From contig JAKLFP010000006.1 of the NCBI GenBank assembly GCA_022711115.1, forward strand, positions 86,214 to 150,213: 64,000 bases of DNA. The letters run 5' to 3'. Below, one piece after another: positions 7,361 through 63,573 of the stretch. The translations under genes were made by a program, and so were the position numbers. How positions within the stretch are numbered: position 1 is the stretch's first letter; every line of letters begins with the position of its first letter. Source of the DNA: Candidatus Omnitrophota bacterium (GTDB lineage Bacteria; Omnitrophota; Omnitrophia; Omnitrophales; Aquincolibacteriaceae). The notes below the pieces were generated by a model that had not been told where the DNA came from, searched no databases, and worked only from the letters and a program-made list of their open reading frames with translations.

Positions 7361-7442
7361 AACCCAGCGATTAATTTCAGGCCATTGCGGTAGAAAACTT
7401 TTTACGGCTGTGTTTTTATCGCTTACAAAATGAGAGGTATTT

Positions 7443-8021: not shown

Positions 8022-8049
8022 GTCTGCAGGCTGAAGACTAGAGACTTAA

Positions 8050-8086: not shown

Positions 8087-8095
8087 GTCTTCCGG

Positions 8096-8590: not shown

Positions 8591-8591
8591 A

Positions 8592-9684: not shown

Positions 9685-9726
9685 AAGACCTTCCCTGCAG
9701 CAGCTACCTTAAAGAATTAAAAAGAC

Positions 9727-10221
9727 TCACGCTTGTTTCTCATAAAAAACAACTTCAAGCAAGGGATCGTCCTGCAGTTTTTCCCGTGATTTTTCTTTAA
9801 AGGCAGCCGGGATTTCCGGATAAAAAACATCGCCCTGGTAATCGGCGTGAATACGGGTGAGATAAATGCCGTGGGCTCGATTAATGGAAGTCCTGTAAAG
9901 CTCCGCACCCCCAATGATAAAAGCGCGCTCGGTCTTCACATTTTTCAAAGCGTCCTCGAGCGTGGAGAAATAGGTTTGACCTGGATAGGGATTTTGACCG
10001 CTCCGATCCAAAATAAAGTTTTGACGTCCCGGCAACGCCTTGCAACCAAGGCTTTCAAATGTCTTGAGGCCCATAATCACCGTCTGGCCTGTGGTCATTT
10101 TTTTGAAATGCTGCAGATCTTTTGAAAAATGCCAGGGGAGTTGATTCCCCTTCCCAATCACTCGGTTATTCGCAACAGCCACAATATGGTAAAGCACAAA
10201 ACCTCCAAACTTTTTGACCAA
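9727..10221 (-). CDS. folA: Dihydrofolate reductase, copy 2 (tandem paralog)
   Basis: 164 aa. VIGKGNQLPWHF, VIMGLKTFESLG, LPGRQNFIL and IIGGAELY are present. By eye it is roughly 45% identical to copy 1. Confidence 0.85.
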   Translation of the reverse strand: MVKKFGGFVLYHIVAVANNRVIGKGNQLPWHFSKDLQHFKKMTTGQTVIMGLKTFESLGCKALPGRQNFILDRSGQNPYPGQTYFSTLEDALKNVKTERAFIIGGAELYRTSINRAHGIYLTRIHADYQGDVFYPEIPAAFKEKSREKLQDDPLLEVVFYEKQA

Positions 10222-10277
10222 AGCTTATGGCTCATAGCTTAGAGCTAGCCGCTAGGGGCTATAGTCTATGGTCTGAT

Positions 10278-11072
10278 TTAAACAGCAACAGGTGCCTTGA
10301 TCGCCGGATGAGGGTCATAACCTTCCAGCTTAAAATCTTCGTATTTAAAATCAAAAATATTTTTTACCGAGGGATTCAGAACCATCTTCGGCAGAGTTTT
10401 CGGCTCGCGGCTCAACTGCAGCTGAACCTGTTCCCGATGATTCAGATAAATGTGCACGTCTCCAAACGTATGCACAAATTCGCCCGACTTCAGACCCGTC
10501 ACCTGTGCCATCATCATAGTCAGAAGCGCGTAAGAAGCAATATTGAAAGGCACCCCCAGAAAAACATCCGCGCTCCGCTGAAAAAGCTGGCAGGAAAGCT
10601 TCCCGTTCAGAACATAAAACTGGAAAAACGCATGGCAGGGCGGCAAAGCCATTCGGTCGATCTCCCCGGCGTTCCATGCGCTGACGATGATTCTCCGGCT
10701 GTCCGGATTGATTTTGATCATGTTAACCGCGTCCGAGATCTGGTCCACCGTCGTTCCGTCATTTTTTTTCCAAGACCGCCACTGAGCGCCATAAACCGGC
10801 CCAAGATCTCCGTTCGCGTCGGCCCACTCGTCCCAGATGGTCACACCGTTGTCTTTCAAAAATTTGATGTTCGTATCCCCTTTTAAAAGCCAAAGCAATT
10901 CATAGAAAATCGATTTGGTGTGGATTTTTTTGGTGGTCACTAGCGGAAACCCTTCCGCCAGATCAAACCGCATCTGATAACCGAAGGTGCTGATCGTCCC
11001 AACGCCCGTGCGGTCTTTTTTTTCGGTGCCGTTTTTGAGGATATGCCGTAGAAGATCAAGATACGGCTTCAT
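10278..11072 (-). CDS. thyA: Thymidylate synthase (ThyA type)
   Basis: 264 aa. [39 protein letters not shown] (catalytic Cys) and the C-terminus PAIKAPVAV. The start overlaps the stop of the upstream gene (ATGA at 11069-11072). Confidence 0.95.
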
Positions 11073-12142
11073 GAAGCCTGTCCGGCAGCATTGAGCTCTT
11101 GCATCTTTGTCTTCTGCGAATCTGCGGGCGGCTGAGACTCTTTGAAAAAATGAGTGTCATCGATATTAAGATCTCCGAAGTAATAACCATTCACAAGAAA
11201 AATCGAGGATGCATCGGAGATCTTCGCATAATAACCCCCTGCTTTTTCGTCATTCACCCCTAGACTGATCGCGGTTTCTTTCCCCCCTGCCGTCACAGCG
11301 ATTTCTAACACCGGTTTCTCAAGGCCATACCCTTTTCCGTCCGGGTCCACGACATTCTTCGCTTTAATGCTGTTCAAAGTCGCGATAAAACGTATGACCT
11401 TATCCGGATCAATGGAGGAAGAAAGATCCTGCCTTAAAAATTTCCAGGAGTTTTTCGTGGGATCTGATTTATCGGTGACTAATTCTATTCCGGCAGCGCC
11501 CGTTTTCGCGCCGTTCTTTAACTGGAATACTGTTATTTTTTGAACGTTTTCGGGTTGAAACTTAAAAAGAGTCAAATCCGCCCAATAATCACTTGAGGGT
11601 TTCCCTTCTTCAAGGGGCGTATAGATCCCAAGGAGATCCGCCATGTTCACATCGGAGAAGTAAACCTCATCGCTGGCCGTTTGGCGCAAAAAACACCCCT
11701 GCATCCCGGCCTGTTTCGTGCCCACCTTCAGATCTAAAAGAACCTTTCCTCCGTCCCCTGAAATCACCATGGAAAAAGCATCTTCATTTTTTATTTTAAA
11801 ATCCTCAAAAAGCTTTTTTTCATTCCCGCGCAATTCGCCTTTGGCCGTACTAAGTTTTTCCAAAAGATGATTCACCTTCGTAACATCTGCCGGAACATCC
11901 CAAAGGCTTTTGACTCTCCAAAGATCCTTTTCTTTGACAAGTTCGACAGGCGGCATGGCCACACCGCGGCCGATCAGGATCTTTTTCGCTTTCGTCGAAT
12001 CGAAATGAAACAGCCTAGTCCCCTCCGCTGACTTCAAGGATGCAACAGTCGTGTCACCGGACCGAACCCAGTATTTCGCTAAGATACCGAGCGAAAGAAT
12101 TCCAAGGATCAAAACCAAAACGATTATTTGTTTTTTTTCCAT
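11069..12142 (-). CDS. Membrane-anchored DUF4340-like protein (third gene of a GldG-type ABC cluster)
   Basis: 357 aa with an N-terminal TM ([17 protein letters not shown]). Its position directly after an ABC ATPase and a permease-GldG fusion is the usual context for DUF4340. The family call rests on context and general resemblance only. Confidence 0.55.
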
Positions 12143-12193
12143 AGCAAGAGAGGCGCCAGAAGTTTGTTCCGCTGACGCTCGGTCTGAGGTCCG

Positions 12194-37900: not shown

Positions 37901-40900
37901 ATCTCGGAACGTTTTGGGGAAGCTGGGACTGCGGAAGATACAGGCAGCAACGGTATGAGCGGCTCATAATAATGTGGCGCCGGATTGTAGTAAGAAGAAA
38001 CGTCTTCTGTTTCTTGTGCGCGTAATTCATTGCGCGGTGGAGCAATGTAGATACCGTCAAAAACAAGTTTGCCAACCAGATTGGTCCCGGCGTATTCTCT
38101 TTTTACAATAAAATCTATCTGGGCAATGCCACCATCTAAATACAGTATTGGCACCTCTACTATTTGATTTGCATATACCCTGGGAATGTCTCTCCCATCA
38201 CTTCCATGCAGTTGTATTCTAAACTGGCTGGGCACATTAATTGTTTCAGCGCCAACATGAAGTCTCAGTATAGTATTAGTCGGCCAACTTGCCAGTGATA
38301 CGTAATTAATTTTCGCCCATGCCCCTTCCCAGTTGCCTTGCCTAAAATCAAAATTAATTGTCCATTTACCCCCTGAGATACTTTCAGTCACTCCGCTCCA
38401 AAGAATGCCATGACTGGTAACTAACGGGATCAGGGATATGTTTCCTGAGGCACTAAAAAATTCCTTCTCGAGCTCTGTGGAATTCAAAGGGCGGGTAAAG
38501 GATGCGTCTCCGTTTTTGCCGGGAACATTCGTAAGGACTGCGGAGGATCCCGTAAAATTAGCCGGATAAGTTCGTATGTCATAAGCGTTGTAATTGGTGG
38601 GGCCGGTAATATTCATCGTGACTTGATTTGTCGCAGGTCCTTTTCTGATCGACATCAGTATATTCGTCATCTGTGCCAGCGCGCTTTGCGCCTGAAGTCC
38701 GAGCACGAGCAGGCCGGTTATGACAAGTTTTGAGATCGCGCTCATCCGTACTTCAGAGCGGCCGGCGTTATTGTTGTCGTTCAGTATCTCCAGTAGTTTT
38801 AGAATGTTTGGCTGAAGAATATCTTCTGTTGAAACATACTTCCGAAGAATGGTTTCGACTTGAGCAACCCGTAAGGTCCTTTGAGCCGCTAAATCCCGTA
38901 TATCTCCGTAAAGAACACTTGCAACGCCCCCCAACCCAAAAGCAATAAGGAATGCTACTGCGCCAAATCCGAAAAGACCGATGCTCCCTATTCCTAAAGC
39001 CAACGCGAAAAGCTTATGACGTTTTAATTGGGATTCTGTTTTAAAGGAAAGCTCATTCATCCAAAACGTATATAAAACGGCTATCTGGGCAAAATCAACC
39101 TGCGCCTCCTCACCCTCCATTTGAGCCCATTTGTATATACTTTCCGCGATCTTATTCCATTCTTCTTCTTGATAAATCGTAAGCCGTTGTTTTACCCATT
39201 GAAGATCGACTTTCTCAATTGGTTTACGGGAAGCCGCCATAGATAGAATGTCATCAATAGCGCGCAAGGAATAAGGATGCGAAATTCTTCCTTTTTTGAT
39301 TGATTCGTTTAAAAAATTGATCCCCTTAAAAACTTCGGTTCTTCTTTCATCTATGAGAGGGGAAACTTCACCTGCAGGGAATGCCTCTCCACGCACCTCG
39401 GAACGTTTTTGAGAAACAGGAACTGTGGCAGGCATGAGTGATAGCCGATGACCGCTCCGGTTATAAATCACTCCATTGAGTGTTAGTGTTTGATCGTCAT
39501 TAAAATGGACGCTCTCAAGAGGAGCCTCTAAGGTTGCCCATTGGATTCCTAAATTGGGATAAGGATTGAACATGTCTATCAGATGGATCCCCGCCAAGTA
39601 ATTAGTCATACCTCCGGCGCGGACCCATTCTCCCCAAACTACCACCTTGCCATCCGGCGAAACATCCCAAACATTAGGAACCAATCCGCGATCTTCCGCT
39701 GAATCATGTAACTTAAACGTTCTCCAGGTATGCGAGCGCGGGTTTCGAAGATCAACCATTTGAAGCGTTTGAATGCCAGAGGGTAAACCTGGACCTACTT
39801 GCACCCATGTTCTAAGCTCAAAATCAGGATTGGAAGTAGCCCGGATAAAAGGTGTTGGCGAATATTGAATCAGTGGAAAAACCTGATCTGTTTTGACACG
39901 ATAAAAAGCCTCAGCCCAGTAAGGCGTCATATTCACTACGGTTTGGGTTGCTCCCACAATGCCGGCCTGTGCCGTGAACCAAGTCCCGGAAGCAAGATTG
40001 GTCGAGATCTGAACCCAGTAAGTACGGTTGGTGGAACTTTTAAAACCCATGCCCATGACTGAACCATTTTTTACAAAAGAAATTATTTCGACCAGATTCG
40101 TCATCTGTGCCAGCGCGCTTTGAGCCTGAAGTCCGAGCACAAGAAATCCAAGCAAGGCAATCTTGGAAATCGTCTTGGCGCGCATTTCGGAACGTGTCTT
40201 TGAATGATAAGTTCCGGGCAAATGATAAGTACCGGGTAATAGCTTTATATAAGTTTGCTGCCCCGGAGAAATAAAAGCCAGTTTCTCATCAAGTTTCGCC
40301 GTCACATCCACTATGTTTTCTTGCAAATTCCATGATGAGATAGCCTTAACAGTAAACAAAGGCCCTTCAGATTTCCAGGAGGGCGCACTCATCATCACAA
40401 ATCCCATCGCACTAAACGCTTCTATCGCATCCTTTTCGAATTCAGCCCTGGAATACGAACGGGCCGTCCGCGCCTCGGAACGCCGGATTCCGTTGCGGTC
40501 ATACGTCCTGTTGCCATTCAGAGTGATGGTTCCGTTTTCATTGAAGCGGATTGATTGCAACGGATCCGGAAGATCAAGAAAGATTCTTTGCTTGGTAGCT
40601 GGTTTATAAAAAACAGCACGATTGCCTAAGATTCCATAGACAACAATGACTCCATCCTGGGAAACATCCCATGGGAAAGCTGAAATACGCGCATAGTAAG
40701 CGTCATCAGAAATGATTGTCCATGTTCGATTACGCAAATTCATCATGTCAAAAAAGATATCCCATGATGTTCCCCCTGTCGTCCGCGGATCAATTCGAAA
40801 AGCGAAATCAGGGTTGGATGGGGCTCGGGTCCAACTAACAATAGATCCGGGTGATGAAGGCACAGCATACAAAGAACCGGCTTGTATTTTAAGAAACCCT

Positions 40901-43900
40901 TTCCCGGTAAAAGATCCGAACAACTGAACAGATGTTTGTGGGGTGCTAATGAAACCCGCCCAGGCAAAATTCCATGTGGGATTTGCCGTAAGATTCGTTG
41001 CAGTTAAAACGCGATGTGCGATATTGGTCCCGAAATTCGTTTCGCTGAGAAATCGTAGCCAAAGATTTGTCGGCGAGTAAGCAAACGAAGTGATCACCGG
41101 CGGGTTTATCTGCGGGATTGCGGGATACCCGATAGCACGGAAAAATCTCTGGCTTGGATTTAGAGCCAATCGATTTAAATAGAGGGCGACAGAATCCACA
41201 TAAGATTCTCGGCCGTAACCGCTGCCCATTACGTCAACTGACGTAACCGTATCGCCTTCCGCAAGTCCGAGCTCCTGAACCGTAAAAGTTCGGGTCACCC
41301 ACTGATTCTGCGGAACTAAAACAAAATTGGTATTGCTGGCTGAATTTTCATCATGCCTGTAATTAAAGTACCTGGCTACCTGATAGGCCGAGCCGTTGTT
41401 TCTCAAGCCATTCAATCGGAAATAAACTGGCGCTTCCCTCCCCGAACCGTCTCCAGTAAGTGGGGCTGAAACAATTTTGAAAGTTATATCAAATCGGCTG
41501 AAATTACTCAGCGTAATCGGTGTGTTATATTCCTGCATCATAAAACGGCCTTCACCGTAATCGGGAGGACGTGACAGGCTAACAACTCCTGTGCGTCCAT
41601 CGTAAGAAGAAAAATATCTGGGAACAGTTTCCGCATTAGTCGAATATGGGACCCAACTGTCTGGCAGGCTATTGGTAGATGATCTTTGAAGAAAATCCCC
41701 ATTGACGACCCCATCAACCACATCCGACGGAACCGTAAAGGTATAAGAAGCTGAACCATTCGTTGCCGCAACATTGGCAAAATGAAGAAAATTTGTGGCT
41801 GTCCCGTTGAAAAGCCGCTCAGCGCTTTGGATCTCATAGGTTTTGTTGGTCGCCGGCCCCGTGATGCCCAGCGTGAATTGATTGGTCGCAGGCCCTTTTC
41901 TGATCGACATCAATATGTTCTGCGCCCATCCTCCGACAGAGGACAGCATCAGGCCAATAAGAGCGGTAATCGCTAATTTGCCCCGCACTTCGGAGCGAGG
42001 TGCGACCGGAGCTGCGGAAGAAGTAGGCGGAGATTCTATTAGCGGCTCATAATAATGCGGCGTCGGGTTGTAGTAAGAAGAAACGTCTTCCGTTCCTTGT
42101 GCGCGCAATTCGTTGCGGCGTGGTGCGACATAGATGCCATCAAACACAATCCTCCCGACCATGTTGGTTCCCGCGTCTCTTTTGTCCAGAACAAAAGCAA
42201 GCTCGTTATGCGCAGTTGGCTTAAGCGGCAACTCTATAATCTGTCCCGCTTGTGGATTATGAACCCCTAGAATTTGCGTATTGGGCTTAAATTCGATTTT
42301 GATATAGGTCGGCAGATTTGTCGTACCGGCGCCAAAATGCAGCCTCAAAACCCTGTCGGCGGGAATGTACATTATATCTCCATACTTCAATCTCCCCCAC
42401 GCGCCGACTAAGCTGCTAATGTTAAAATCAAAGTCGATTGTCCATTTTTTGTCCGCTGAAATTCTCTCGACCACACCTGTCCAAATGATGCCATGGTAAT
42501 AAAATAACGGAATCCACGAGACATTCCCTACGGCACTAAAAAATTCGTGGTCTAATTGGCTCGAATTTAAAGGATGGACATAGGAGGCAATTCCACCCGT
42601 TGCGCGAATATTTGTTAAAACCATGGGTGAGCCTACGAAATTAGGGGGATAAGTTCGCAGATCATAAGCATTGTAACTTTTAGGACCAGTAATGTTCATC
42701 GTGACTTGATTTGTCGCAGGTCCTTTTCTGATCGACATCAAGATATTCGTCGCCTGCGCTAGCGCGCTTTGAACTTGAAGCCCGAGCGCAAGCAGTCCGG
42801 CCATGGCGAGTTTCGAAACCACTCCAACCCGCACTTCGAAGCGGGCGAAAGAAGTGATGAGTTGGCGGACTTCCCTGTGAACGGCAGGAGCCCCTAAAAG
42901 AGCTGAGAGGTTAAAGCGCGGAGAATTGACTTTTTTAAGATTGATATTGTCAAAACGCATCGGAAAGATTGGATCACCGTTCTCAAGAGTCGCTTCTCCA
43001 CCGGCCTTCAAGACCAGAAACGCTCCCTGAACAATATCCCAGATTGACGGAGTGGGTTTCATGTAAAAGATCTCAGGGTCTCCTTGGTTATAAACACCGC
43101 TTGAAATGACGCGCCCGATATTGATAAACCCGGATTCTCCTTTATTGAAGATCACTGAACGAGCCGCCGCCTGAACGGCCGCATAGTAAGGCGCCGGAGA
43201 AACTCCGGCTTTATCGGATTGATAAATAGCAACCCTGGCATTTGCAAGGGTACCGGCTGCAGGATCGATCCAAACGGGTTTTCCGTTCAATAAAACTCCG
43301 GGCCGATCCCGGGTGGCGGTCCACATCGAGCTGCCTGTTCCGTCAACATCGTATTCGGGAGCAAAAATAACTGAAAGGACCGGCATGCCGTCTTCAAGCA
43401 GAAGAAGCGCGGTATCATAGCCTTTCTTTTTTGTCTCATAAGCTTTAGTGCCATCAATAGGGTCCACGATCCAGACATGCTTCGCTTTCTTGGCATTCTC
43501 GATCAGCTGCCTGTTCGCTTCCAGATCGGCATCGTCCTGAGAAAAATTTTCTTCACCGAGGACCACAGAATCAGGCACGATCCTGGGAAGTTCAAGATTG
43601 AAGAGATTCTGAATGTCTCGATCAGCCTTTGTTTGCCCTGAGTTGTCACTTTTGACGACGCGATCCAGATCGGAAGACTGAAGGGCTTTTCGCATAATTT
43701 CACCGGCTTGTCTGGCTAGGCTTTCAACTTCACTCAGCGCTTTTTGAACTTCGCCCGGTGTTAAATCCCGCATTTCGGAACGAGATTTTGGTTTTCCGAG
43801 ACGGACGAAAAATTTATGATCCATGTGACCAATGGCGGTTGTCCGTGCTACCGGACGATCTCGATAAGTCTCATCGATCTTGTGCACCCGCAAACCTTTG

Positions 43901-46900
43901 GGAGCTTCCACGCTCAAGTTTGCCGTTTGAAGATCCGCCACTTGCCGCAAAGAAATCTTAACAACACCTTTTCCTGTCTCGATTACAAGCGGTTGGGACA
44001 ACGAAACCTCAAAAATTTGTCCGGCCAAAATCGCCACACCGCCTTTTGTGATCATCGAACCGTCCTTGATTAAAGGAATGGAAACCATCATCCTTTGCTG
44101 TTGTGAAGACAATGTATCGATCTGGACCCGGAAGATCCCGGGGCCGAAAACAAGTTTATGCCCGCGGGAAACGCGCATTGTCTCTGTGGTAAGGATAGTG
44201 GGCTTTTCCGGATTTCGCATTTCCGAACGATGCTTTTTTTCAATTCCTATTTCAGCATACAAAGGCTGCCCTGTGTCCTGGACTTTATGAAGATGAACAA
44301 TAATATCACCGACGGAAATGCTTTCTCCGGCAATCCGTCTGCCCTCTTGGATTACTTGGCCCTCCTTTAAAATTTGCAAAAAAGCGGCAGGCAGACTATC
44401 CCAACCATAACGACCGGGATAAGCTTCAACATCTACGGTCAAAGATAATCCATGGTCTAATTCGATAGTTTGCTGATCTTCAACACGTTTTAAGGATAGT
44501 TCTATTTCATTCGACACTTCAAGTTTTTGTCTTTGGGGACGGTTTTTATAAAGTTCTTTTATTCCTATCACGATCATCCCTAAGATCGCAGCCGGTGCAA
44601 CAATCCTGGCCAGAACAACCAGGGAATTGACCCAATCGATATCCATCCGCAATTCCGAGCGACGAAAATGAGGCGCTTCGTCCATTTCCGGGGCCAAAAG
44701 ATCTTGAGTTTGCTCCACCGCGGCCCTGACAACCGACATTTCATCAAGATAGCGGCGATAAGCGCGCGTGGTCACGGGATCGGCCGGCGATTCCTCGGAC
44801 AAAGATTCGATTTTCTTTTCCAGACCCTGAAGCCAGCTCGCCCATGCCGCAGAAGCCGCGTAGAGCCATCCCAGAGTTCTTACAAGATTTTCGACGTTTT
44901 CCGGTTTTGCGTTTTGACGGTCCGACAGAAGCCGTTCGGCCGCAGGATTGAATTTACGAACCAACGGATCCCGGATCTGGCTAAGCATGCTCGGTTGGTC
45001 CAGCCGGTTATCCTGGAGATGCCTTCCGATCTCTGTCTTGATCCTCACAGGGTCCGTGGAAGGATTCCCGTTGTGCGGCGCGAGCGCAAATAAAGCGTTG
45101 GAAACTTCTCGGAGCGCGGACAAAGCGTCGGCGTGAACCTGTTCCGGTAACAATTTATTTTGATAAATCTCTTCCAGACTCAACAGCCTGTCCATAAGAG
45201 ACGCGGTATTTGAACCGATAAAATCAAGCCCTTCCTCTCCGGCTACCGCCTCTTGTCCTTCTTTTTCAAGAAAACGCTGCGCTTCCCGTCTGCTCTGAAA
45301 GATCAAGGCCGTTTCATTTTCAATCCGCAACTCCGAGTGAGGCGTTTGGGAAGCCGTGTCCCCGCCCGTAAGCGAGAACAACCGCCCGCGCAACACCTCG
45401 AGCCGGCTCGATAAAACCTTCCGGCTACGTTCCAAATTTATCCGTTCTTGTAAAGAGGTTGCTTGGCGAAACTTTACAGCAAAAGATTTTGAGCTGGATT
45501 CCAAATTGGCGATCCTCAAACGAATCTCTTGTTCGTCAACTGGAATCCCCGGATCCGGATCTTCGGCACGCGCCTCCGACCGGGAGATCTTAGTCATGTC
45601 CGGAATATTCCCGAGCAGCTCTCCGACAGCACGGGCTATGCGAACCCGGGAATTGTTGGGATCATCACCGAAATTCCCGGCATTGCTCTGCACTATTCCG
45701 ATCAAGTCAGAGACAACTTCCGCTTGTTTACGGACAGCCTCGGGAAATCCTTCCGTGGAAATCACGTCGAACAGCCCGCCTTTATTTTCCGTAATAGCCA
45801 GGAAAAGTTCCTTCAGCTTTTCACGATCCCCTTTGAAATTTTCCTTGATGCCGGTCATGTCGGGATTAACGCTCCGGACCAAAAGCCTCAAAAGGATCTC
45901 GGCCTTGATTTCAGAAGTCAATGTCCGGTTGCTCATAATATCGTTCAGGACTTTTGCCCGCCGCTCCGCCTCAGAAAAACCCGTCATGGATTCAGGCAAT
46001 GATTCTCCGAGATTCAGAGCCTTGGATTTTTGTTCCTGCGCGTGAAACTCATAGGCCGAGGCCACGATCAGATCCAACCCACGCTGTGCCCGCCAAGCCA
46101 GTTTCCGCGTCGCCAATTCACTGCTGGCACGAAGAACATCCGGATCGCCCTGCCGGCGCGGACCGTAATCCACCACTAATTTGCCGCGCTCTGCCGCGGG
46201 AAGCACTTTCCTGAAACTTTCAACGATCTGATTATTGGAGGTTGGGGTTCCTGTCCCTAAGGTAAAGACTTCGCCTACTTTTTTATTCTCTGTCTTGGCT
46301 TGATAAGACAGTGACAAAGATTTCATAATCGCGTGACCAATGTCCAGAACATGGATATAATCCCGGATATTGGTGCCATCGGGCGTCTGATAATCTTTCC
46401 CAAAGATCTGGAACGGAACCTTTTCTTTTCCGTAAAGGAAATATTTGATGAGCCTCGGGATGAGGTGCGTCTCCGGACCGATATGCCCTTCCCCGACCCA
46501 CTCTCCGATCTCCTCCCAGTAAAACGCTCCTGCCAGATTGAAAAAACGCAGCGCCGCGAAATTAACGCCCTGCGCTTGATAGGCCTGCATCAGGCGTTCC
46601 ATCAGATATTTGGTCTCTCCGTAAGGGTTCATCGGTTTTGCCGGGATCTTTTCATCAAGCAATCCGTATTTATTGAAATTCTTTCCTTCAAAAACACCAG
46701 CGCTCGAGGCGAACGCCAGGGGGATCCCCAGTTCCTTCGCGACTTCTTCCACATCCAGCGTACCAACCACATTATTGTCAAAGTACGTCGCCGGAAAATT
46801 TCCGGAGACCCCAGCGGCAATGTAAGCCGCCAAATGAACAATGCTGTCCGCGTGATGTTCCATCGCGACCTGCTTCAAAAGATCGCGGCTTGCGATATTT

Positions 46901-49900
46901 CCTTCCACCACTGAAACTCTTCCAGGGTAGGCCGCCTGGACCTTCCGCAGATAGGCCTTCCGCTTGGGTGTGAGCATGTTGTCAAAAAGGACGACCCTGG
47001 ACCCGTTGGAAAGCGCTTCATACATGACCCCTGAGGCTACATAACCAAAACCTCCCGTGATCAAGACGGTCTTTCCTTCATGGATTTTAGGATCCACATT
47101 CGGAGCCACCGGGCTTTCGATCATGGATTTCTGCCAATTTAAAAAGTAGAGACGCTCGTCATCTTTAGGAAGGATCTCAAGTTCCCAGTTCTCTTTGATC
47201 AAAATTCCGCCGAGCTCATAAGATTTCTTGGAAGCCAGAAAGGCCGCGATCTTTTCAGGGATCCCTTTTTCCCGAAGTTTGCGTCCCAATTCTTCAGAAG
47301 ACATGTAAAAAGCTTCCTGGGCCGCGATCTCGACAGCGATATGATCGTCTTGCGTCACCTCCACGCCTCCGATGCTGCCAAGACTGGCCTGAAGACGTTT
47401 TTTCCAGTAATGAGACTGCGCCAGATACGAAGTAGCGACCGTTTCCACCACGGCTACGGCATCGGGCTTTTTGATCGGTTCGAAAGTATCTTCGCGCGTC
47501 AGCCCGACCAGAGGAGATTCCGGTCTGCGGGGCCTGTCATCGCTCGCACGTTCTAATTTTTTGACAGTTCTTGTATTCCCCTCGAAATCCACCTGCGGTT
47601 TGGTGTCAAGCCGCCACGGCGTTCGGCTGGACGCTTTGAGACTTTTTCTCCACAACACGCGAAAACTCGGGTCCCCCCACAGCACTGTGTCCTTAATGGC
47701 GTCCGTGGCGTTCCCGTAGCCGATATGGCGCCACTGCCCGTCGGAGGTTTTGATCTGGTTCCCAAGCCGGTCATCGCGATTATTTTTCTTCACAACACCC
47801 AATGCGATATGGGCTCGGTCATCCTGATTGCCGGGATTCCATGTCATTTGCCCGTAGCCGATCAATCGCTCATCCGCGATGGGGTTCAGCTGATTGTCCA
47901 CATTAAGGTACTGGACCACTTCAACGCCGAAGGAATCGAGAAAAGCGTTCACATCCTCCCGGAGAAGAACATCATCAAACGTATCCCCATGACCGGTTCC
48001 CCCTGTCGCGATCTCGCCGTTCTTGTTCAGAAAAGGCATTCCTGTTTTCGCGTCAAAAAGCGGCATCACGCCCTGTTGGGCGATAAAGATCCGGTCTTTC
48101 ATCCCGAACCACTGATTTTCCTCAAAGAACTGTATCGTTTTTTCATGGGTGATATCGCTTGTCATGATGATGACGGGAAAAGACGCGTCGTGACCGTAAT
48201 ATTTTGCTGCGGCCTGGATCTTCTTGATGATCCCGGCATAAAGCGGGAGCTGGCTCAAGGGTGTTCCGGGCAAAAATCCCTTGGGGTCAGGGCTCTTAAA
48301 CTCAGACCCCGAACCTCCGGCCGCCAGGACAAGCGCAAATCTTGATTTCCCGGGCATCGCCGGATCCGCCCGCAAAACTTTTTCCCGGGCCAGACGCTTT
48401 GCGGCGGCATCCTCCGCTGCTCCCGGTTCATGAACAGGAACGGTGAACGTTTCCGGAACTTCCGGCTTCGGCACTCCCGGCATCACAATCGTGTCCCGGA
48501 GTCGCTTGGCCTCTCTCCACAGAATTGTTTTAATCTGTCCGAGTATTTTTTTCTGCTGCTTTTCGCTTAAGGAATCCCACGGCGCCAGCAGGTGCTCCCA
48601 GCCGACTTCCTTGAGGCTTTTCATGGCCCAGGATGGGATTTCCGCGGCAACGCGTACTTCGGAACGTTTCTGCGAACCGCTTGCCGGAACAATCCCGCTA
48701 AGAATATCTTTTTCCCCCGCCGTCAGAACGGCATACGCTTGCGCGTGTTGTTCCGCAATGTCTCGCAAAACTTCTTCAGCGTAGTCTTCATCATCAACTT
48801 CCGGATCAAGACTTTGCATGACTTCTTTAAGAACGCTGGCGAATACTCTCGTGTTGAATTTCCCGTCGGCAAAAGTCTTCGGCAAAAGTTTCCCTTCCGC
48901 CAATTCCTCGGGAGAAAGGTCAAGTTTGGAGATCGCCTTTGCCGCGGCCTCTTCCATAACATGTAGTTTCAGGTCTTTCAGTGTCGGCACATCACGCAGC
49001 GCCCTGAAAATGGCCGGAAAACTGTAGCTGTTGTTCAAGGTGCTTCCCTGCGGGTATCCAAAAGCGCCTGTTGCGATAAAACGGATGTTCGGCATTTTTT
49101 TGAGTTCTGCCGGGTCCGCTTCGGGAGTCGGGTTCGAGCCCATAAAAGCACTGGCCTGGTCCTTCATGCCAGAAAAGATCGATTCCTTGCCCCACAAAAA
49201 CCCAGGCTCGGATAATCCTATAAAAGCATCCGCCCCTTGCAGTCCTTCCGCCAAACGCCCCTGATCGATCAAAGAAAGGACTATTTGGTTAATCTCGGGC
49301 ATAAGATCGCCGTATTTTTCGCTGAGAAATCCCGCGATGTTCTCCGGCAAACGGCCTTGTTTCTGCAGGGCCTCCATCGCGGCCAATCTTTCTGCCGCGG
49401 CATGGGCAACATGCTTTTTATCTCCTCCCTGCTCGACTTCGGCTAAAGCCAGTTCATGGGCCTTCGCAACCGAAAACTCCAGGCTTCCTTTAAATCCCTG
49501 AATGTTCAAAGCCGCCAGGTCATTTTTATGCTCTTCAAAGATTCCTTTTCGGCCCGAATAAAGAGGGCCCTTGGTGTCGTATACGATAATATTGCCACCC
49601 CCTGTTTTATCCATACCGAAACCGAGACGTTTCAGGAGAAGTGCTGTCGCGGTGGCAGAGGCCCCGGCGCCGGCGATCACCACTTTCATTTTAGAAATAT
49701 CACGGTTGGTTTCTTTCGCGGCCCGTAGAAGAGCTCCCGCAAAAACCATCGCGGTCCCGTGCTGATCGTCATGAATGGTCGTGATCCCTGTTTCGTTCAG
49801 TTCTCTTTCCAGCGGAAAACAGACCGGCGACCCGATATCCTCCAGCATCACCACAACCTCAAGTCCTTCCTCCTCGCGAACCTTGGTGACATAAGCCTGG

Positions 49901-52900
49901 ACTTGCTGTTTGATCTTTTCCTTAATCTCAAACGCTATTCGTTTTTTCGCCCCGGGATCTTTTTCTGCCTTGTATTTGAGCCACATGTCCCGCGTATCCA
50001 CAAACGCGATGTCCACGTTCACGCCGCCGAACCACTTCAGCAAAATCCTTTTCCCTTCCGATACCGCGCGCATCACGGCCGGCCACTGCAGTCCGATCCC
50101 AAGCACCGCGGAAGCGTCCGAAAAAATCACGATCTTTCTTTTTTGAGCCGGGAAAGACAAAGGCTTTTTGCCGTAAAGCGGCGTTTCAAGGTCCAGGCCT
50201 TTTTTCAGCGCGTCCGCGATCGCTTCACAAACGGCTCCCACGCCGGGGGTATAAACCGTCTTCATCGCTTCGATCACATCGACCGGGACAATGCCGTGCT
50301 TAAAAAATATGTCGATGAGTTTTTTGTAAGTCTGATATTCCGATGGGATCGCCGCCGGCAAGCTGTCCTCAGATGTCTCCCGAACTTCAGACCGGGGTCT
50401 GCTTTCCATACTAACCGCTACTTTGCAATTATTTGTGTCGGCCCGGGTCCTTACGCGGACATTTTCCCATCCCAATCGGGTAAGGTTTTTGAATGGAATA
50501 TCAAAGACAACCCAAGTTGTCCGATTTGAATCTACAATAAGCGAAGCTTCTTCTATCAATGCGTGGATATCTCCGTAGATATCAGCAGGCCTTTTCCCGG
50601 AAGGATCCACGTATAACCGCATAGGGATCCGGATCCGATCGTCCGGCTCAATGAGTTCGACTTGAAGTTGTTTGTGATCCTTAAAGAAGGATTGCTTAAC
50701 AAAAATATTGACGGCTTTGTCGTTTGTTTCGACGAAACCCGGAACCAAAAGGCTGATATCCTGTGCGGGTAAATGCCATTGGGGGCCTATGAAATCTCCC
50801 AGCGGCTCCCGAAAACTCCATGCCGTCAGCGCAAGAATTAACAACGCCATAGCCATACTTAGGTTTAAGAAAATAGCCCGTGAACTTAGGTTTGGATTCC
50901 ACCAGCGCCTTATCTGGGTGTCTGTGCGTGAAGCTTCTGGGATGGCAGCAACAGAACCGCCTTTCGGGGGCATGGTTCGTATTTCGGAACGGCGTCCAAA
51001 AGCTTTGGTAAGCGCTTCGGCAAGGGCTTTCGGATTGTCCCATGGAGCAAGATGTAATGAGGAATCTTTTTTGGGGTTTTTAAAAACAATTTTTTTCTGG
51101 AAAGGTTCAAGGCTTCGTTTTTCTCCTGACTGTATGACAGACACTTGTTTTGAGTTCAATCCAAGCGCCCGCTGTAATGTTAAAACAAGGTCTTCCGGAC
51201 TTTGCACAAAATCCAACGGGGCCATGTCAATGCCCACCCAAATACCGTTTCCAGCCTGATGAAAAGTTACCTCATACCCAAGTACTTTTGCCGTCTCACC
51301 CCGCATTTCGGAACGGCCCAGGTTTTGGCTTGGATCTGTTCTACCATTTGCGCGCTGATGAACGTTGATGATCGTTTGGGCGATCTCCATGGAGTTCATA
51401 ACAAAACCGTCTTTCATCACCGGTTTTACATTTTCGGTAACAAACTCCGAGGGACCCTGAGCGTAAACAAGCAACTGGCCGTCTTCGCTCTCAATAACAT
51501 GAATCCCATTCGGCAATGTCCTTCCCATACCTTGGATCAATCCTGCGAGCTGTTTTGCCGAGAAAACCGTGGTGTAATCACCGATGACCGCCGCAAGAGA
51601 TGTCGGATCTTTCCGGCTAGCGGCCCTCACTTCAGCCCGTTGAATGGCAGCAATTGCATTTTTTGCACTTAGGTGAACGGATGGATCTGAATCATTCAGC
51701 GCTGAGTAGAGCGCTGAAAGCGCTGGTTGGGCCTGGGGACCAATTTCCCCAAGTGTGATAATGGTCTGCTCACGAATCTCCGGAGAAGGGTCCCTCAATT
51801 GGGGCATTAACTGCCAAACTGCATCGCCCGCCTCAGAACCCAAGGCGCCAATAGCGGCAATGGCCTTTAAACGCACCTCTTTTTCCGGGTCGCCGATTAA
51901 ATGAAGCCAATCACTCACATTTTTCGGCATAGCCGTTTCAGACGTACTCCTCATTTCAGAGCGATTGTCCGCGGGATGTTTTCCTTCGAAGTGTGATGGT
52001 TTTTTGACAAAGGTGACTTTAGCGGTTGTCCCTTTAGGATAAGGATGTTTCAGGGTTTCGGGATTTTTTAAATCAACTGCTTTATGGCCGGGAGATGGAA
52101 TGATGCTGGCAATGTATTCACCGCCGCCTAGATTTTCACGTACCTCAACGGCTCGCTTGATAGCCTTGAGCGTCATGGTTGCCTCAAGTTTATAGATTTT
52201 AAAATGAAGGGCGTCGTCAGCTTTCACTTCCGTTAGCCCTTTGACCTTCGTCCTCATCTCGGACCTGGCAGAACGGCTTTTCAGGGTATCTATTTTTCTT
52301 TGACCCTCTTGATCTTCCGGTTGGATATAGCGGTGCAGAAAATGCCAAAGAAGAGATTCAGGAGTGAGAAGCGACTGGTCCCAAACCGGCATGTCTTTAA
52401 AAATCGTCTTGAATCGTTTCAGGACGTTGAATACAAAATCATTCTGCTTTCTCTGGAATTGCTGGGCATAGGCGATTTCGATTAACGGCCCCAAAAAACG
52501 GTTAAGAAACGGCAGTTCATAAGCAAGTTGTGTATTAATGGAACGATGCGCTTTTTTCATGGTTTTAAAGCTACGTTCCGTTTCTTCGAATCTCATCTTT
52601 TGCCATCTCCGGATCACCTCGGCAACCGTATGCTCCGGTCCCACCACCAAACTTGCGAGGATATCCCGCATCAAGCGGATGTCATAACCTGTCAGGATAT
52701 TATTGCCGTAAAGCAGCATATCAGGACTTGTATAAAGAAAGATCCCATAATGTGTTTCTTCAGGTTTCAAAACGGCCAACAACTCATCACTCAAAGCTTC
52801 AACCCCTGTCACAATCAAGGTCTCGTCCGGCGCAAGCTGCAAAAGCTGTTTTTCTCCTCGGTCGTCTTTAACGCGGATTTTCTTCCCGTCCAAAGCATTA

Positions 52901-55900
52901 CGGACATCCCACGGATTGGCAAATTCAAGGTCCAAATGTTTCAGCTTAAGACCTGCTTGAGCGAGCATTTCAGAGAGCTCTTCGGTGATTCCATGTTTGC
53001 CCGAAGCGCGCATGCCACCGATCAAGATCACCTTGGGTTTTTTCTCAAGGATCTCACGGATAACCTCCTCGGTCTGTTGCTTTTTGGATCGATCCACCTT
53101 TTCGACCAATGCTTTTCTTTCCTCTTCGGTTTTGATCGCTCGAAGTTCGTCGAGAGTTTCGGGCAGAAGTTCCAGGCTCATGCCTTCAAGGTCATAAGGT
53201 TTTTGGCCCTCAAGTTTTTTCGCCCATGCTTCGGGATGGCGCGCCAATTCCGCATTCATAATACGGATGACGGCCAAAATAAAGGCTGCTTTTCGAAGAC
53301 TTATTTTTTTCGCGTCGGCAATACGAACAACATTGTTAAAAGCGCTGATAATTTTATCTTCCATAATGCGGTTCACGGCATCTTCCGGCCATTGTTCACG
53401 AACAAGGTTCTGCCGCCATTCCAGGTAAGAAACGATCACGCCGCCCGCATTGGCAACCACATCCGGAACAACGATGACACCTTTTTGCTTCAAAATTCCG
53501 TCGGTTTCCTTGTTTTTGATCGGTCCGTTGGCTGCTTCAATCACCAATTTGACCCGGAGCAAACGGGCAATGCGTTCATCAATGGTATTTTCGAGTGCGG
53601 CAGGCACTAGGGTATGAACCTCGCTGGCCCAAAATTCTTCCTCGGAGATCACTTTCACTTCTTCGGGGTATTCTTTTGCATAATCCAAAATGGTTTTCCT
53701 GGGAAGCATGTTGCCGGCCGCGTCTTTCCTGGGTGCCAGGAATTCCAGAATCTTGGGAATGTTCAAACGTTCACCGGTTTTGGTCGCAATAGCGCCTTCT
53801 TTTTCTTTCACGGCCATAATCCTTGCTCCATTTTCATGAAAGATTTGCGCGCCATGCCCGCCCACATTGCCGAGTCCTTCAAACGCAACGGTTTGTTTTT
53901 CTATCTCTGTCCCGATGCCGAGCCGGGCTCCAAAAACTTTGACTGCTTCGCGCCAGACAAAAAACACCCCACGGCCTGTTGCTGCAGTCCGACCATGTGA
54001 ACCGCCTTTTTTCTCGGGCTTGGCGGTCACCACAGCAATGGGAGATCCTTCTACCATTGGAATTTTATGCTTTTCAGGATTTGCTAAATACGCGTCTAAA
54101 TAGGGTGTGTCGACATCTTTGGAATTGCTTAGTTTCCACCGAAATTCGATTGTTTTTTTGAATAATTTGTCATGCTTAATCTTTAAAAATTCATCTGCCA
54201 TCCATGCCATTTCCTTTTCTCCAGTGCCGACATCCGGAGCCGGAATATCATTCAAAGGACCGATCGCATCGGCATCTTTGGCAAGCAAAGCCTTCACATA
54301 ACCTCGAGTCAATCGTGCGAGCTCGCCTTCTGAAAGCTCGCGCGGATTCACGGCAATGCCTCCCTTGCCCCCTCCGTAAGGAAGCCCTGTGATGGCATTT
54401 TTGATGCTCATCCACATGGAAAGAGCCTGCACATCCTCAAGATCGACATTCGATTTATAGCGCACACCGCCTTTTCCCGCCCCCCGCGCATCATTGTGAT
54501 AGACGCGATAGCCTTTAAAGATCTTTGTGGTGCCATTATCCATACGCACCGGAATATTTACTTCAAGGATACGATAAAAGCTGAGGAGCCATTCAAGAAG
54601 TTGGGGATCAAGGTGGATCAGCTCTGCGACCTCCGAAACCTGACGCTTTGCATTATCAAGGGCCACCTGACCTTCGGATGCTTTTGCCTGTGCTTCTTTT
54701 TCTGCTCGCACTTCGGACCGTCCTTCAAGTTGGCCGGGCATGTCGGCCATCAAAATTCCCTCGTCATCTGACAGCAACGTCTGCTGACCGCCAGGCGCTA
54801 CATAGCGCGACACCGGCCTGCTGAGTTTTTTTCCTCCGCTGAAATTCAGGAAAGCGATCGGTTTCCGGTTGAATTTTTCAGAAAGTTTGGAAGCCCAAAA
54901 ATCAGCGCTAAACTGATCCGTTCCGGCCACTACCAAAATCTGGTCTGCTTCTGATAATTCGTTAAATAACCTGTCGGGAGGTGAAGTGATGTCGATGGCC
55001 CATTCACTCTCATTGCAGATGAGCAGTGCCAGTTTGAATTTTTGATTCAATAAAATGATTCGCGATTCTTGGTTATGAGCGTATTTCTTGAATTCTGTTT
55101 TTTGAACTCGACCCGTTCCATCGGAAAGGAAAAAGACATAGAAAGCCCTTAAGTACTCCAGCCCTTCGGGAGGGATCCTCTCCAAACCGTAGCCGACCGA
55201 AATTCCAAGACGCCGGACCGTTTCTGAGAGAATTCTTTCTCTTTCTTTTTCGCGTTCCGGAGTGTAGCTGTTCCAACCCACAACTTCATCCGGGCTTTCA
55301 GGGAAAACAACAAGATCGGGGGCATTTGTTCCGAATTTATCTTTGAGCCCTTGCAGAATCCCCGCCATTCTGGCTGTGCTCGCATCAAAATCATTTTCCT
55401 TCATTTGGACCCAAGCGATCCTTGGAGCGTCACTTTTTGCCTTTTCGTCAAGCCACACAATCTGTGCGGGTAACGCTTCTTCTTTTTTTCTCACTTCGGA
55501 ACGAGAAGAAACTTCGGGCGGCTGTTCTTCAAAAAGAAGATCAAGGGCCAACTGACCTTCTTGACCATAACCTTTCTGCCGAAACAGATCTTCTAAGCGA
55601 GGGCGTTGTACGAGGTCGCTGAAATCCGCATCTTCGGAAATTTGGTCTTGTATGGTCTTGCGAAGCAATTCCAGAATCCTTCCCGCGGATGAATAATCAG
55701 AACCACGTTGAGTCTTACGAATAAGAGAATCTGTTAACGCCGTAAAAATATTAGCGAGAAAAATAGTGTCTCGAGCTTCCTGAGAGATATTGGCAGGAAC
55801 ACGGCTGGCTGGTTTTTGATCCTGCATTTTTGCCCTCGCAATAGCACTTTGAATCCAGTCCATGACCGTTTTCTTGGTTTTGTTTTCAGTCCTCACTTCA

Positions 55901-61395: not shown

Positions 61396-63573
61396 ATGCG
61401 TCATCCTATTTCCTATAAAAGCGCTAGTGTGGCATTGGCTGCTATTTCAATGTTCCTTTTTTACAACTGGACTGCCACGGCGGAAACAACTCCTTCGTTA
61501 CCTTTAGAAAATCTTGCAATCCCTGAGTCCTTAGGCAAGGTTCAGGAACGTTTCGTCGGTTCCGGAAACCGCATCATTATTCAGATTCAGGATGTCCATG
61601 CACACGCCGCCGCACAGGAAAACATCGCGGCCATTCTGGAGCATCTTCAAATTGTCGGCAGGATCGATAAAGTCGCCTTGGAGGGTGCCTGGATCACAAC
61701 TGATTTGCCGAAAAGCCACGCTTTACCGACTTCCAGAGAAAAACAACTTCTCGCCAGATCCCTGCTGAGCGATGATCTTATTTCAGGCCCTGTCTACGCC
61801 TCCCTGATTGCCCCCTCCCCCTTGATGCTGATGGGGATGGAAGATGCGGAGTTGTATGAAAAAAACCGCGATCTTTTCATTAAACATCTTGAAGCCGCAC
61901 CAGCCATTGATTCGAAAGTTCGTGCTTATGGAGAAAGATTGCAAAACCTGCAAAAACAAGCCTGGAACCAGGATCTTCTGACTTTTGGAATTGCTTTTTC
62001 AAAATTTGAAGAAGCGATGGATTATGGAAAATTTTTTCCTTTCTTAATAGAAATTTCAGGTTCTCACAACGTTGATTTTTCAGACCTCGCTCAGATTGTT
62101 TTAACACGGGACATTATGGCTTTCGAAAAATCCATCTCGAAAGAACGCCTCGAGAAAGAGGCCAAACAGCTTATGCGTCAATTCAAGGACACTCCCTGGA
62201 CGCTGGAAGAATTGATTCGAGGCAATAAAATCCCGTCCGAACAGCTGGGTTTTTATCCGGAAATAAAAAAACTCCTCCACTTATTCAAACTTAGAGATCG
62301 GGTTTCTCTAACCGAGCTCATGTCTCAGACGGAAACCCTCATCAGTCGTATCCTCAAAATGCTTATTCAGACACCGGAAGAAGAGGCTTTGTGGGGAAAA
62401 AGTGAAAGATTTTTCCTGGCGAAACGGATTCTTCTTCTCAAGGCAGCGCCAGATGACCTCAAAACTTATGAGGATGAAAAAGCGGCTCTGGAGGCGGATC
62501 TTCAAGAGGCCGGACTTTCCGAGGGATTAGATCTTTCCTTGAAATTTTATGAAGTTGTTAAAAAACGCGATGAAATCTTTTATGACAAGATCGTTAATGG
62601 CCCCGCGTTCGCGGGTCCCCTTGCCGTCGTCACGGGGGGATTTCATACGGATGGTCTCTCCAAAAAATTTCGCGCCGCAGGAATCTCATATATCACGATT
62701 GCTCCCGAACTCGGGAACACTTCTATGGATGAAAAGCTTTATGTTGAGAGAATGCGTTCTTCAAAACCAGCGCAATACCAGGATTTGCCGCCCTTGGCAG
62801 ATCCCGGTATTGCCGAGGGTAAAACGGAAACTCTCTCGGAGCTTCGCAATGCTATTGCTTGGATCGACGAAAGATTTTTCGAGGCTTATGAGGTCTTGAT
62901 GCAAACCAAGGATGTACGAAAAGCCGTTGCTGCTTTTTCCGGAACAACCGTCACTATTTCTAACGCGCAAAAGATATCGTATGCCTATTCTGCGGGCAAA
63001 GTTGTTTCGGCAAGAAAGACAGGGGGAACCACCATTCCGGCCATTCATGAAGCTGAATTCCTAGCCAGCACGCGACAGGAACAATTAGCCGTTGTGCAAG
63101 GATGGCTTGATAAAGCTCCCCGCGTCGATCAAAAGGCCATGCTGGTCTCTTCTGTCAGTGTTCTTAAAAAATTGCTTTCGGACGAAAAAGTTCCAGGGCT
63201 GATCGAAAAAATCACTAAAAACGGGGATTTGCTTGTACTCCTGCAGGATATTCCCTTAACCGAAGTGCCTGAATCTTTGATGACAGCACGAGGGATCGAT
63301 CGTTTTGATGCGCCGGATTTCCAGCACTTGCTCCAAAATATGCCGCGTTTTCAAAGGCTTGCTAAAAAATATCCTTTTGCAATCATGAAAGAGGGCTACC
63401 GAAGCCAGGCCTATGTGGTGCTTCCGGAAGATCCGGCCTCATTAATCCTTTACCGAATCGTCACCTTAAGCCCAAGCCTTTATCAGGCTGCCAAAAACCC
63501 TCGCTTTCTTAATCTTTTGAAGGAGCTTGTTGCAGAGATCTTGTCCGAAGAGCTTCCTAAAAAATCCGTTTAG
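61396..63573 (+). CDS. Stand-alone paralog C of the giant-family N-terminal domain (725 aa, no junction motifs)
   Basis: RBS GAGGA at 61387-61391. Signal/anchor ALAAISMFLFYNWTATA, IIIQIQDVHAHAAAQENIAAILEHL, VALEGAW, LAVVTGGFHTDGL and SYITIAPEL align with the N-termini of the two multi-module genes. The C-terminal ~255 aa are unassigned. No R-S-E-x-R is present. Confidence 0.85.
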   Translation: MRHPISYKSASVALAAISMFLFYNWTATAETTPSLPLENLAIPESLGKVQERFVGSGNRIIIQIQDVHAHAAAQENIAAILEHLQIVGRIDKVALEGAWITTDLPKSHALPTSREKQLLARSLLSDDLISGPVYASLIAPSPLMLMGMEDAELYEKNRDLFIKHLEAAPAIDSKVRAYGERLQNLQKQAWNQDLLTFGIAFSKFEEAMDYGKFFPFLIEISGSHNVDFSDLAQIVLTRDIMAFEKSISKERLEKEAKQLMRQFKDTPWTLEELIRGNKIPSEQLGFYPEIKKLLHLFKLRDRVSLTELMSQTETLISRILKMLIQTPEEEALWGKSERFFLAKRILLLKAAPDDLKTYEDEKAALEADLQEAGLSEGLDLSLKFYEVVKKRDEIFYDKIVNGPAFAGPLAVVTGGFHTDGLSKKFRAAGISYITIAPELGNTSMDEKLYVERMRSSKPAQYQDLPPLADPGIAEGKTETLSELRNAIAWIDERFFEAYEVLMQTKDVRKAVAAFSGTTVTISNAQKISYAYSAGKVVSARKTGGTTIPAIHEAEFLASTRQEQLAVVQGWLDKAPRVDQKAMLVSSVSVLKKLLSDEKVPGLIEKITKNGDLLVLLQDIPLTEVPESLMTARGIDRFDAPDFQHLLQNMPRFQRLAKKYPFAIMKEGYRSQAYVVLPEDPASLILYRIVTLSPSLYQAAKNPRFLNLLKELVAEILSEELPKKSV

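Follow-up and report, generated by a model that had tools for sequence, protein, structure and literature searches.

An open reading frame (ORF) of 11,695 codons on the minus strand (nt 25993-61080) of a 64,000-nucleotide stretch of Candidatus Omnitrophota DNA from contig JAKLFP010000006.1 (hereafter the window) encodes a giant protein that is divided by a strict pentapeptide, R-S-E-[VMILA]-R, into a head and 33 motif-delimited modules (34 segments, as counted from the ORF list, the motif sites and Pfam searches over all modules). It can be said with high confidence that the units bounded by this motif are equivalents of proteins and not of domains. It is probable that the giant is a polyprotein, with the motif as a junction signal between such units that would be cut by a site-specific endopeptidase, for which its head is the best candidate. 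The signal, R-[SA]-E-x-R, would lie in disordered linkers, and each unit would correspond to one gene product elsewhere, whether that is one domain (MraZ, or the carrier protein ACP), an enzyme of several domains or a fusion of long standing. The argument turns on two units, a glutamate dehydrogenase (GDH) joined to a kinase-like domain and a UDP-sugar pyrophosphorylase joined to a GalE-type epimerase and a tail. They lie within residues 2126-5166, which equal nt 45583-54705 exactly, as an initial annotation of the stretch had placed them (residue n starts at nt 61080-3(n-1); all positions given below for the giant are on the minus strand).

Two multi-domain units and their relatives

The GDH unit (module 5) is opened by RSEVR at residues 2121-2125 (nt 54706-54720), an exact motif, and homologous units in the relatives P0015, P0016 and P0017 likewise open with R[SA]ExR. 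It is closed by RSEMR, also exact, at residues 2939-2943 (nt 52252-52266). The GDH domain (residues 2170-2613, nt 53242-54573) matched ELFV_dehydrog_N and ELFV_dehydrog (PF02812 and PF00208) at residues 50-493 of the module taken from aa 2121 to 2938, with 168 and 197 bits, above the gathering score. The NCBIfam match was of the GdhA type (346 bits, below the equivalog cut-offs), and Foldseek aligned the module model with solved GDHs at a TM-score of about 0.9. An insertion of about 55 residues between the two Pfam domains (aa 2306-2359, about nt 54004-54165) was modelled as disordered, with a predicted local distance difference test score (pLDDT) of 30-45. The connector that follows GDH (aa 2614-2680, nt 53041-53241) had been described as an E/K-rich linker of about 65 residues; it is instead a helical connector of about 70 residues, modelled with pLDDT 70-93, conserved in the family consensus and holding no motif, even in relaxed form. 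The AlphaFold model of the module, built from an alignment of eight sequences, had a mean pLDDT of 81.7 and a predicted TM-score (pTM) of 0.85, with values below 50 in the first 7 residues past the opening motif and the last 20 ahead of the next one.

The domain beyond the connector (aa 2681-2918, nt 52327-53040) is a divergent P-loop domain of the PRK/uridine-kinase kind, as judged from its HMMER relatives and a profile alignment. Searched directly with the sequence of this domain alone, Pfam and PDB yielded no more than weak P-loop matches, PF00485 being absent even at E values up to 10; a word-indexed protein search and scans of genomes and metagenomes gave nothing, and its profile found generic P-loop matches only in the PDB. 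The fold search with the entire module model returned GDHs only, and the kinship of the domain is thus sequence-based. An exhaustive HMMER search returned 192 relatives, among which the sampled proteins of about 300 and 550 residues are PF00485 PRK/uridine-kinase proteins, and a profile of the GDH-fused domains aligned collinearly with PF00485 proteins over the P-loop and the C-terminal half (E 1e-27 to 1e-47). For this reason the earlier label "uridine-kinase-like" holds at the superfamily level, through a tie to PF00485 that is transitive only, by way of that profile. It fails at the Walker A motif: in place of the canonical GxxxxGK[ST] the giant has GGMRASGKH (aa 2688-2696, about nt 52993-53019), and throughout the GDH-fused clade GK is followed by H, P, M, L, V, Q or R in place of S/T. 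Because the Walker A Ser/Thr is missing, it is doubtful that the GDH unit is a bifunctional enzyme, as had been supposed, and the kinase-like domain may be no second enzyme but a nucleotide-binding domain of non-canonical or regulatory type. The predicted mass of the unit is 91.6 kDa.

The second unit (module 11) lies between two exact motifs, RSEVR at aa 4139-4143 (nt 48652-48666) and RSEAR at aa 5167-5171 (nt 45568-45582). Its UDP-sugar pyrophosphorylase-like domain (aa ~4150-4640, nt 47161-48633) is 57-61% identical to P0001-P0003 and matched UDPGP (PF01704) at residues 108-315 of the module taken from aa 4139 to 5166, with 44.3 bits against a cut-off of 22, over profile positions 52-245 of 413. 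The initial annotation had the pyrophosphorylase and the epimerase joined in the same way as GDH and kinase, by an E/K-rich linker; the connector (aa 4641-4671, nt 47068-47160) is only about 30 residues long, is not E/K-rich, is conserved in P0001, and has neither a motif nor a relaxed form of it at the point where another relative, L008, has RSEVR. The epimerase (aa 4672-5018, nt 46027-47067) matched Pfam Epimerase (7e-38; residues 534-785 of the same module), and the best of all short-chain dehydrogenase/reductase (SDR) models was galE TIGR01179, aligned over its full length at 233 bits, below the equivalog cut-off of 262.3. The C-terminal tail of about 150 residues (nt 45583-46026) matched no Pfam or other family and is conserved along with GalE in P0001 as far as giant aa 5152. 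Pyrophosphorylase, GalE and tail together have a predicted mass of 113.6 kDa.

As first reported, the motif is missing at both enzyme-enzyme boundaries, and this extends to degenerate forms: the patterns [RK][SAGT][ED].[RK], R.E.R, R[SA]..R and [RK].E[VMILA][RK] had no match at the GDH/kinase-like or the pyrophosphorylase/GalE boundary, and the sole relaxed match in either module was KTENK at aa 4929, within the epimerase domain. The absence might be trivial, through a degenerate motif, second halves that are not separate enzymes, or simple chance; under uniform placement the motif-free GDH-kinase span in the giant has P of about 0.11, which is not significant by itself, and Pfam does not recognize the divergent kinase-like domain. 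We consider this very improbable, given that no relaxed variant stands at either boundary, that both second halves are real domains (of the PRK/uridine-kinase superfamily and the GalE-type epimerases, respectively), and that the pattern repeats in six giants. Since the absence in a single protein is not significant, the weight of the argument rests on the comparison with relatives.

GDH lies directly upstream of the kinase-like domain in 32 of the 150 relatives listed among the 192 found, and these include both stand-alone-sized proteins and many giants. The former are the free-standing GDH-kinase fusions for which a search had been advised, with lengths of 752-935 residues (P0026, 800; P0029, 852; P0063, 839; P0100, 752; P0041, 935). 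Among the giants, P0016 and P0017 have a GDH-kinase unit that is 44% identical and bracketed by RSExR with none inside, and in P0015 the unit is bracketed mostly by R-A-E-x-R, again with none inside. Other recurrent junction peptides are found in P0044 ([RH]FAE, 17 times) and P0031 (R-x-SP[ST][GSA], 18 times); these flank the GDH-kinase unit tightly, no more than about 50 residues from the matched domains, and do not occur within it. Across six giants and three unrelated junction motifs (R[SA]ExR, [RH]FAE and SPSG-like), the unit is always bracketed and never interrupted, with P of 0.02-0.13 per protein under uniform placement and 1.3e-8 jointly. The motif indeed does not mark every domain boundary, and GDH with its kinase-like domain is, as judged from these relatives, an old and fixed evolutionary unit.

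A stand-alone counterpart was found for the second unit as well. P0001 (locus L003; 1495 aa), the product of a stand-alone gene, is 56-57% identical to the giant across aa 4113-5152, which is the whole pyrophosphorylase-GalE module with its connector and tail; the cargo of this gene thus corresponds to the motif-bounded module almost from end to end, and it is a free-standing fusion of the kind for which a search had been advised. At the position of the giant's opening RSEVR, P0001-P0003 have a variable linker, and P0002 and P0003 carry the pyrophosphorylase without GalE. In L008, where an ORF is open over 15.3 kb and contains 18 RSExR sites, the pyrophosphorylase (33% identity) has RSEVR on both sides, the first at the place homologous to the giant's opening motif, and is followed by a Maf-like module. 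The motif is present after the pyrophosphorylase where this forms its own unit, as in L008, and absent where the fused cassette is the unit. Both the GDH-kinase and the pyrophosphorylase-GalE-tail units would have been single, structurally integrated proteins before their incorporation, and this would be why neither has an internal motif.

A scan of a genome collection with the pyrophosphorylase alignment returned only a fragment in ELA163 and one Planctomycetales giant without the motif. In a Planctomycetales metagenome-assembled genome (MAG), locus L005 (CAYVEC010000017.1, 2-21511), the frame is open over the whole 21.5 kb (at least 7,170 aa) and includes a pyrophosphorylase module of 33% identity, with zero RSExR and no obvious recurrent junction peptide. 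Three tandem genes at L006 2629-13332, together with P0001 (L003 10001-14488) and P0002, have in common a secreted N-terminal domain of about 350 residues and of unassigned family (46-48% identity). A C-terminal "PGGIDL…" domain is a further feature common to two L006 genes (P0002 being the second), and a stretch containing GGID closes P0001; the enzyme cargo between differs. The proteins with this N-domain are another vehicle for the same pyrophosphorylase cargo.

The junction motif and the segments that follow it

The 33 exact R-S-E-[VMILA]-R sites of the giant compare with 0.23 expected from its composition. Each RSE tripeptide in the protein falls within a complete motif, and beyond the 33 sites there are no [RK]SE.[RK], RS[ED].R or R[ST]E.R variants. 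None of the remaining window ORFs of at least 250 codons contains RSExR, apart from the giant and the ORF at nt 1-6942 discussed below. The motif persists in relatives down to about 30% identity of the head, with 11 sites in L010, 17 in P0016 and 15 in P0017 besides the 18 in L008, and mostly as RAExR in P0015. Over 131 sites in ten proteins its information is restricted to the five core residues, the flanks being mildly enriched in small residues. In the DNA, arginine is encoded by both CGN and AGR, serine by TCN and glutamate by GAA or GAG. The third codon positions vary freely, and selection therefore acts on the peptide and not on the DNA. The motif is probably a peptide-level junction signal, R-S-E-x-R or, more broadly, R-[SA]-E-x-R.

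Action at the level of nucleic acid or translation, through an internal start, ribosome skipping or the scar of a recombination that inserted a cassette, was also considered. In its favour, the codon for x is ATG, GTG or TTG at 21 of the 33 sites, probably as a side effect of the preference for V, M or L, and module content differs strongly among relatives. Such a reading is nonetheless highly unlikely in view of the free synonymous positions and the two kinds of arginine codon; the flanking conservation that a 2A-like element would need is also lacking. The more specific idea of a Shine-Dalgarno sequence with an internal start was rejected: the wobble positions vary, no Shine-Dalgarno-like sequence was seen upstream in the aligned junction DNA, and x is not limited to start-like codons in relatives, where it can also be T, N, S, K or R.

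Two further observations concern the boundaries of the motif set. RAEVR occurs at giant aa 3148-3152 (nt 51625-51639), in the middle of the HEAT-repeat module at aa 3040-3255; it may be a 34th site, dividing this module into 108 + 108 residues, and R-A-E-x-R is the main junction of P0015. In L010 the head (P0004, 721-2469) is called as a separate gene of 582 aa that overlaps, in another frame, the start of an ORF at 2432-12469 (at least 3,346 aa, with the 11 RSExR sites); this split could be a frameshift, an assembly error or real.

What follows the motif bears on whether the junctions are cut. Signal-peptide-like segments begin within a few residues after 12 of 122 motifs, against a background of 2.7% (p = 1.2e-4); they start 1-9 residues past the motif, and AxA sites (…ALAQ, …AKAQ) or lipoboxes (L-[AV]-G-C) are present in several of them. 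In the giant itself, four of about ten transmembrane-like segments begin 3-9 residues past a motif, at aa 5474, 6362, 6963 and 7441 (motifs at about nt 44647-44661, 41983-41997, 40180-40194 and 38746-38760), and a fifth follows a near-motif. This near-motif, RFEVR at aa 6080-6084 (nt 42829-42843), stands within the module at aa 5767-6361 ahead of a signal-peptide-like segment (VGVVSKLAMAGLLALG), and may be a degenerate junction. The modules at aa 6963 and 7441 have near-identical leaders (…LGLQAQSALAQMTN…), and those at aa 6362 and 7441 have ILMSIRKGPATN in common; from these leaders, the modules look like paralogous exported units.

The cargo is consistent with units that were once separate. 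Pfam searches over all modules of the giant found, besides GDH, UDPGP and epimerase, malic enzyme, HEAT, inositol monophosphatase, methyltransferase, PP-binding, MraZ and a GT5-like domain, and the small MraZ and ACP modules match entire free-standing proteins. The view of the initial annotation, that the motif delimits likely final products and is more in keeping with a processing signal than with a generic linker, gains support from the stand-alone occurrence of the GDH-kinase and pyrophosphorylase-GalE-tail units, from the signal peptides and lipoboxes 1-9 residues past motifs, and from the difference between an ordered internal connector and the disordered flanks predicted around motifs. 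We infer cleavage of the junctions by a site-specific endopeptidase and, with it, a cellular location for the cutting and a biological role for the products; cutting would release the units, some of which would be exported once a signal peptide or lipobox of their own is exposed.

The same junctions could instead remain uncut. The giant would then be an intact, membrane-anchored multi-enzyme scaffold, with R-S-E-x-R as a docking or recognition site for a chaperone, the translocon, a modifying enzyme or a partner. For most Omnitrophota giants a membrane anchor is predicted, the literature treats such giants as single proteins, and the serine of the motif could be modified. An uncut scaffold is unlikely, as AxA signal peptides and lipoboxes so close to motifs would be expected to need or create a free N-terminal region, and the ends of units coincide with the native termini of proteins that occur on their own, MraZ and ACP for example. 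The unrelated junction motifs of other lineages also suggest a co-evolving pair of enzyme and substrate.

The head domain and its neighbourhood

The best candidate for a junction protease is the head of the giant itself (aa 1-626, nt 59203-61080), which begins with an N-terminal signal/anchor. It matched no Pfam family; its fold is the alpha/beta fold of TIKI, erythromycin esterase (Ere), TraB and RRSP. Residues [DE]82-x-H84, E112 and H503 (the last in TGGFH) are at least 90% conserved, with D82 in the giant, and the spacing of 28 between H84 and E112 equals that of H85/E113 in Bcr135 and H3902/E3930 in RRSP, as compared by sequence spacing. Enzymatically active members of the TIKI superfamily share a 2His/2Glu site; among them are RRSP, a site-specific endopeptidase, and Tiki, which is a Wnt protease (PMC6254334). 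The first motif of the giant, RSEVR at aa 627-631 (nt 59188-59202), stands immediately after the head, and the 15 residues ahead of it (aa 612-626) were modelled with pLDDT below 50. Its place relative to the head is as in L008, P0005, P0015 and P0016. The head recurs in L008, P0004-P0009, P0015 and P0016, and in each case the first motif comes next, at about aa 612-661; all R[SA]ExR proteins for which the N-terminal region is available have a head of about 600 residues, at their start or encoded just upstream.

Two further heads are encoded in the window. An ORF at nt 1-6942 on the minus strand begins with ATG at 6942, runs off the window and encodes at least 2,314 aa; its head is 31% identical to giant aa 9-566, and three RSExR motifs follow (nt 5008-5022, 3769-3783 and 1426-1440). 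On the plus strand at nt 61396-63573, a stand-alone head paralogue of 725 aa without motif (HOW59601.1) adjoins the giant gene and is divergently transcribed from it. It has an N-terminal signal/anchor, reads …IQIQDVHAHAAAQ…ALEGAW…VVTGGFHTDG…, and had neither a Pfam nor a PDB sequence match. From fold, conserved residues and position we propose that the head, in cis or by way of this paralogue, is the junction endopeptidase; both cleavage and this role for the head are plausible.

Several points weigh against this proposal and against the polyprotein as a whole. The TIKI superfamily also includes esterases and haem binders, so protease activity does not follow from the fold. Some giants in which no recurrent motif was detected (P0022, P0035, P0040, P0043 and L011) likewise begin with a head, and P0031 and P0044, with their other junction codes, have no head. 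The N-terminal signal/anchor would place the head outside the cytoplasm, and most of the cargo looks cytoplasmic. Finally, Omnitrophota giants have been read as intact membrane-anchored proteins (Nielsen & Lui 2026 preprint).

Some of these points would suit a protease encoded elsewhere, for instance an Arg-directed subtilisin or another serine or cysteine protease, with the head serving in ester hydrolysis, anchoring or secretion. Heads do exist without a detectable motif, the superfamily does include non-proteases, and S8 and C39 peptidase domains occur in other Omnitrophota giants (West-Roberts et al.). This is rather improbable, as Pfam scans found no endopeptidase domain in the modules of the giant, and the flanking genes scanned contained no dedicated endopeptidase; the peptidase-type hits there were limited to an M24 aminopeptidase-type enzyme and a gamma-glutamyltranspeptidase. 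Wherever the N-terminal region of an R[SA]ExR protein is known, a head accompanies the motif, with the first motif always directly after the head, and the headless P0031 and P0044 are proteins that use other motifs. The head therefore remains the preferred candidate. A wider proposal, that Omnitrophota and related bacteria would make true cellular polyproteins in which a TIKI-superfamily head cuts R-[SA]-E-x-R and other lineages use other codes ([RH]FAE, R-x-SPSG), is put forward tentatively, as a possibility that falls slightly short of an even chance.

The genes flanking the giant are ordinary. They encode MqnA-like, sulfotransferase, flavodoxin-like and M24 peptidase proteins, a split transketolase, gamma-glutamyltranspeptidase, Bax1-I, ABC/GldG, ThyA, DHFR and SOD. 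Rfam and tRNA scans of the window gave no matches. Flanking proteins of the window are identical to HOW59601, HOW59611 and HOW59617 of a Candidatus Omnitrophota MAG, and the contig recurs in two metagenome assemblies (JGI 3300009838 and ENA ERZ27257456).

Comparison with known systems

The giant belongs to the class of multi-enzyme metabolic giants of Omnitrophota by its definition, having at least 10,000 residues and many distinct Pfam families of which none dominates, in an Omnitrophota genome. It further resembles them in its HEAT, starch-synthase-like and methyltransferase content and its signal/transmembrane anchor. Giant proteins of this phylum reach about 147,000 residues. Their cleavage points have been stated to be unknown, a gap that blocked structure prediction (West-Roberts et al. 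2023 preprint). The junction motif, the polyprotein model and the TIKI-like head are absent from the two accounts of these giants (Nielsen & Lui 2026; West-Roberts et al. 2023), and literature searches for a bacterial polyprotein, a junction motif or a TIKI link in Omnitrophota found no description of the motif or the head.

Whether Omnitrophota giants function whole, as one molecule each, or are processed into products is an open question, which a conserved, strict junction motif that respects protein-equivalent units makes testable. The motif predicts exact product boundaries and sizes, namely 91.6 and 113.6 kDa for the two units and not 54 + 38 or 56 + 58 kDa; the earlier expectation of cleavage at motifs only is kept in these values. 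The nominated protease has three residues to mutate (H84, E112 and H503), and the junction code offers a rule by which giant ORFs could be parsed computationally into products. If the model is true, giant "genes" would be operon-like packages of many mature proteins, some of them exported by their own signal peptides; its confirmation would establish in bacteria a polyprotein strategy of chromosomal, housekeeping type and would add a new substrate class for the TIKI superfamily. Within that superfamily, which takes in TIKI, erythromycin esterase, ChaN, TraB and RRSP, the head differs in a helical insertion of about 300 residues between its two halves and in having no Pfam match.

Concatenation of unrelated enzymes is found in other settings. 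Iyer, Burroughs and Aravind reportedly described, in 2017, polyvalent proteins of phages and conjugative elements, very large proteins that concatenate many unrelated enzymatic domains, for the release of which embedded peptidases are said to have been proposed. To our knowledge, a defined pentapeptide junction is not part of that description. The giant also differs in its context, which is a chromosomal one of housekeeping type; the window contains no genes of mobile elements.

MARTX toxins are likewise single huge bacterial polypeptides with an array of unrelated units, which can be multi-domain. A protease that is part of the polypeptide frees these units by cutting short sites in the unstructured linkers between them. 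One MARTX effector, RRSP, has the fold of the giant's head domain. The giant is not a MARTX protein, however, as Pfam scans of all modules found no CPD (Peptidase_C80), no RTX or glycine-rich repeats and no toxin-type effectors. Its junction is a strict pentapeptide, whereas MARTX has a Leu in a loop, its cargo is of housekeeping-type metabolism, and its candidate protease is N-terminal and of a different family.

Viral polyproteins, such as those of Flaviviridae, consist of units joined by a short conserved cleavage motif for a protease encoded in cis, and internal signal peptides lead to additional cuts by the host signal peptidase. The giant resembles them in its protein-equivalent units joined by a short conserved motif, in its candidate protease encoded in cis and in its internal signal-peptide-like segments. 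It differs in that its gene is chromosomal, in a cellular organism and among ordinary flanking genes, in that its cargo varies greatly among relatives, and in that its candidate protease is TIKI-like and not chymotrypsin- or papain-like.

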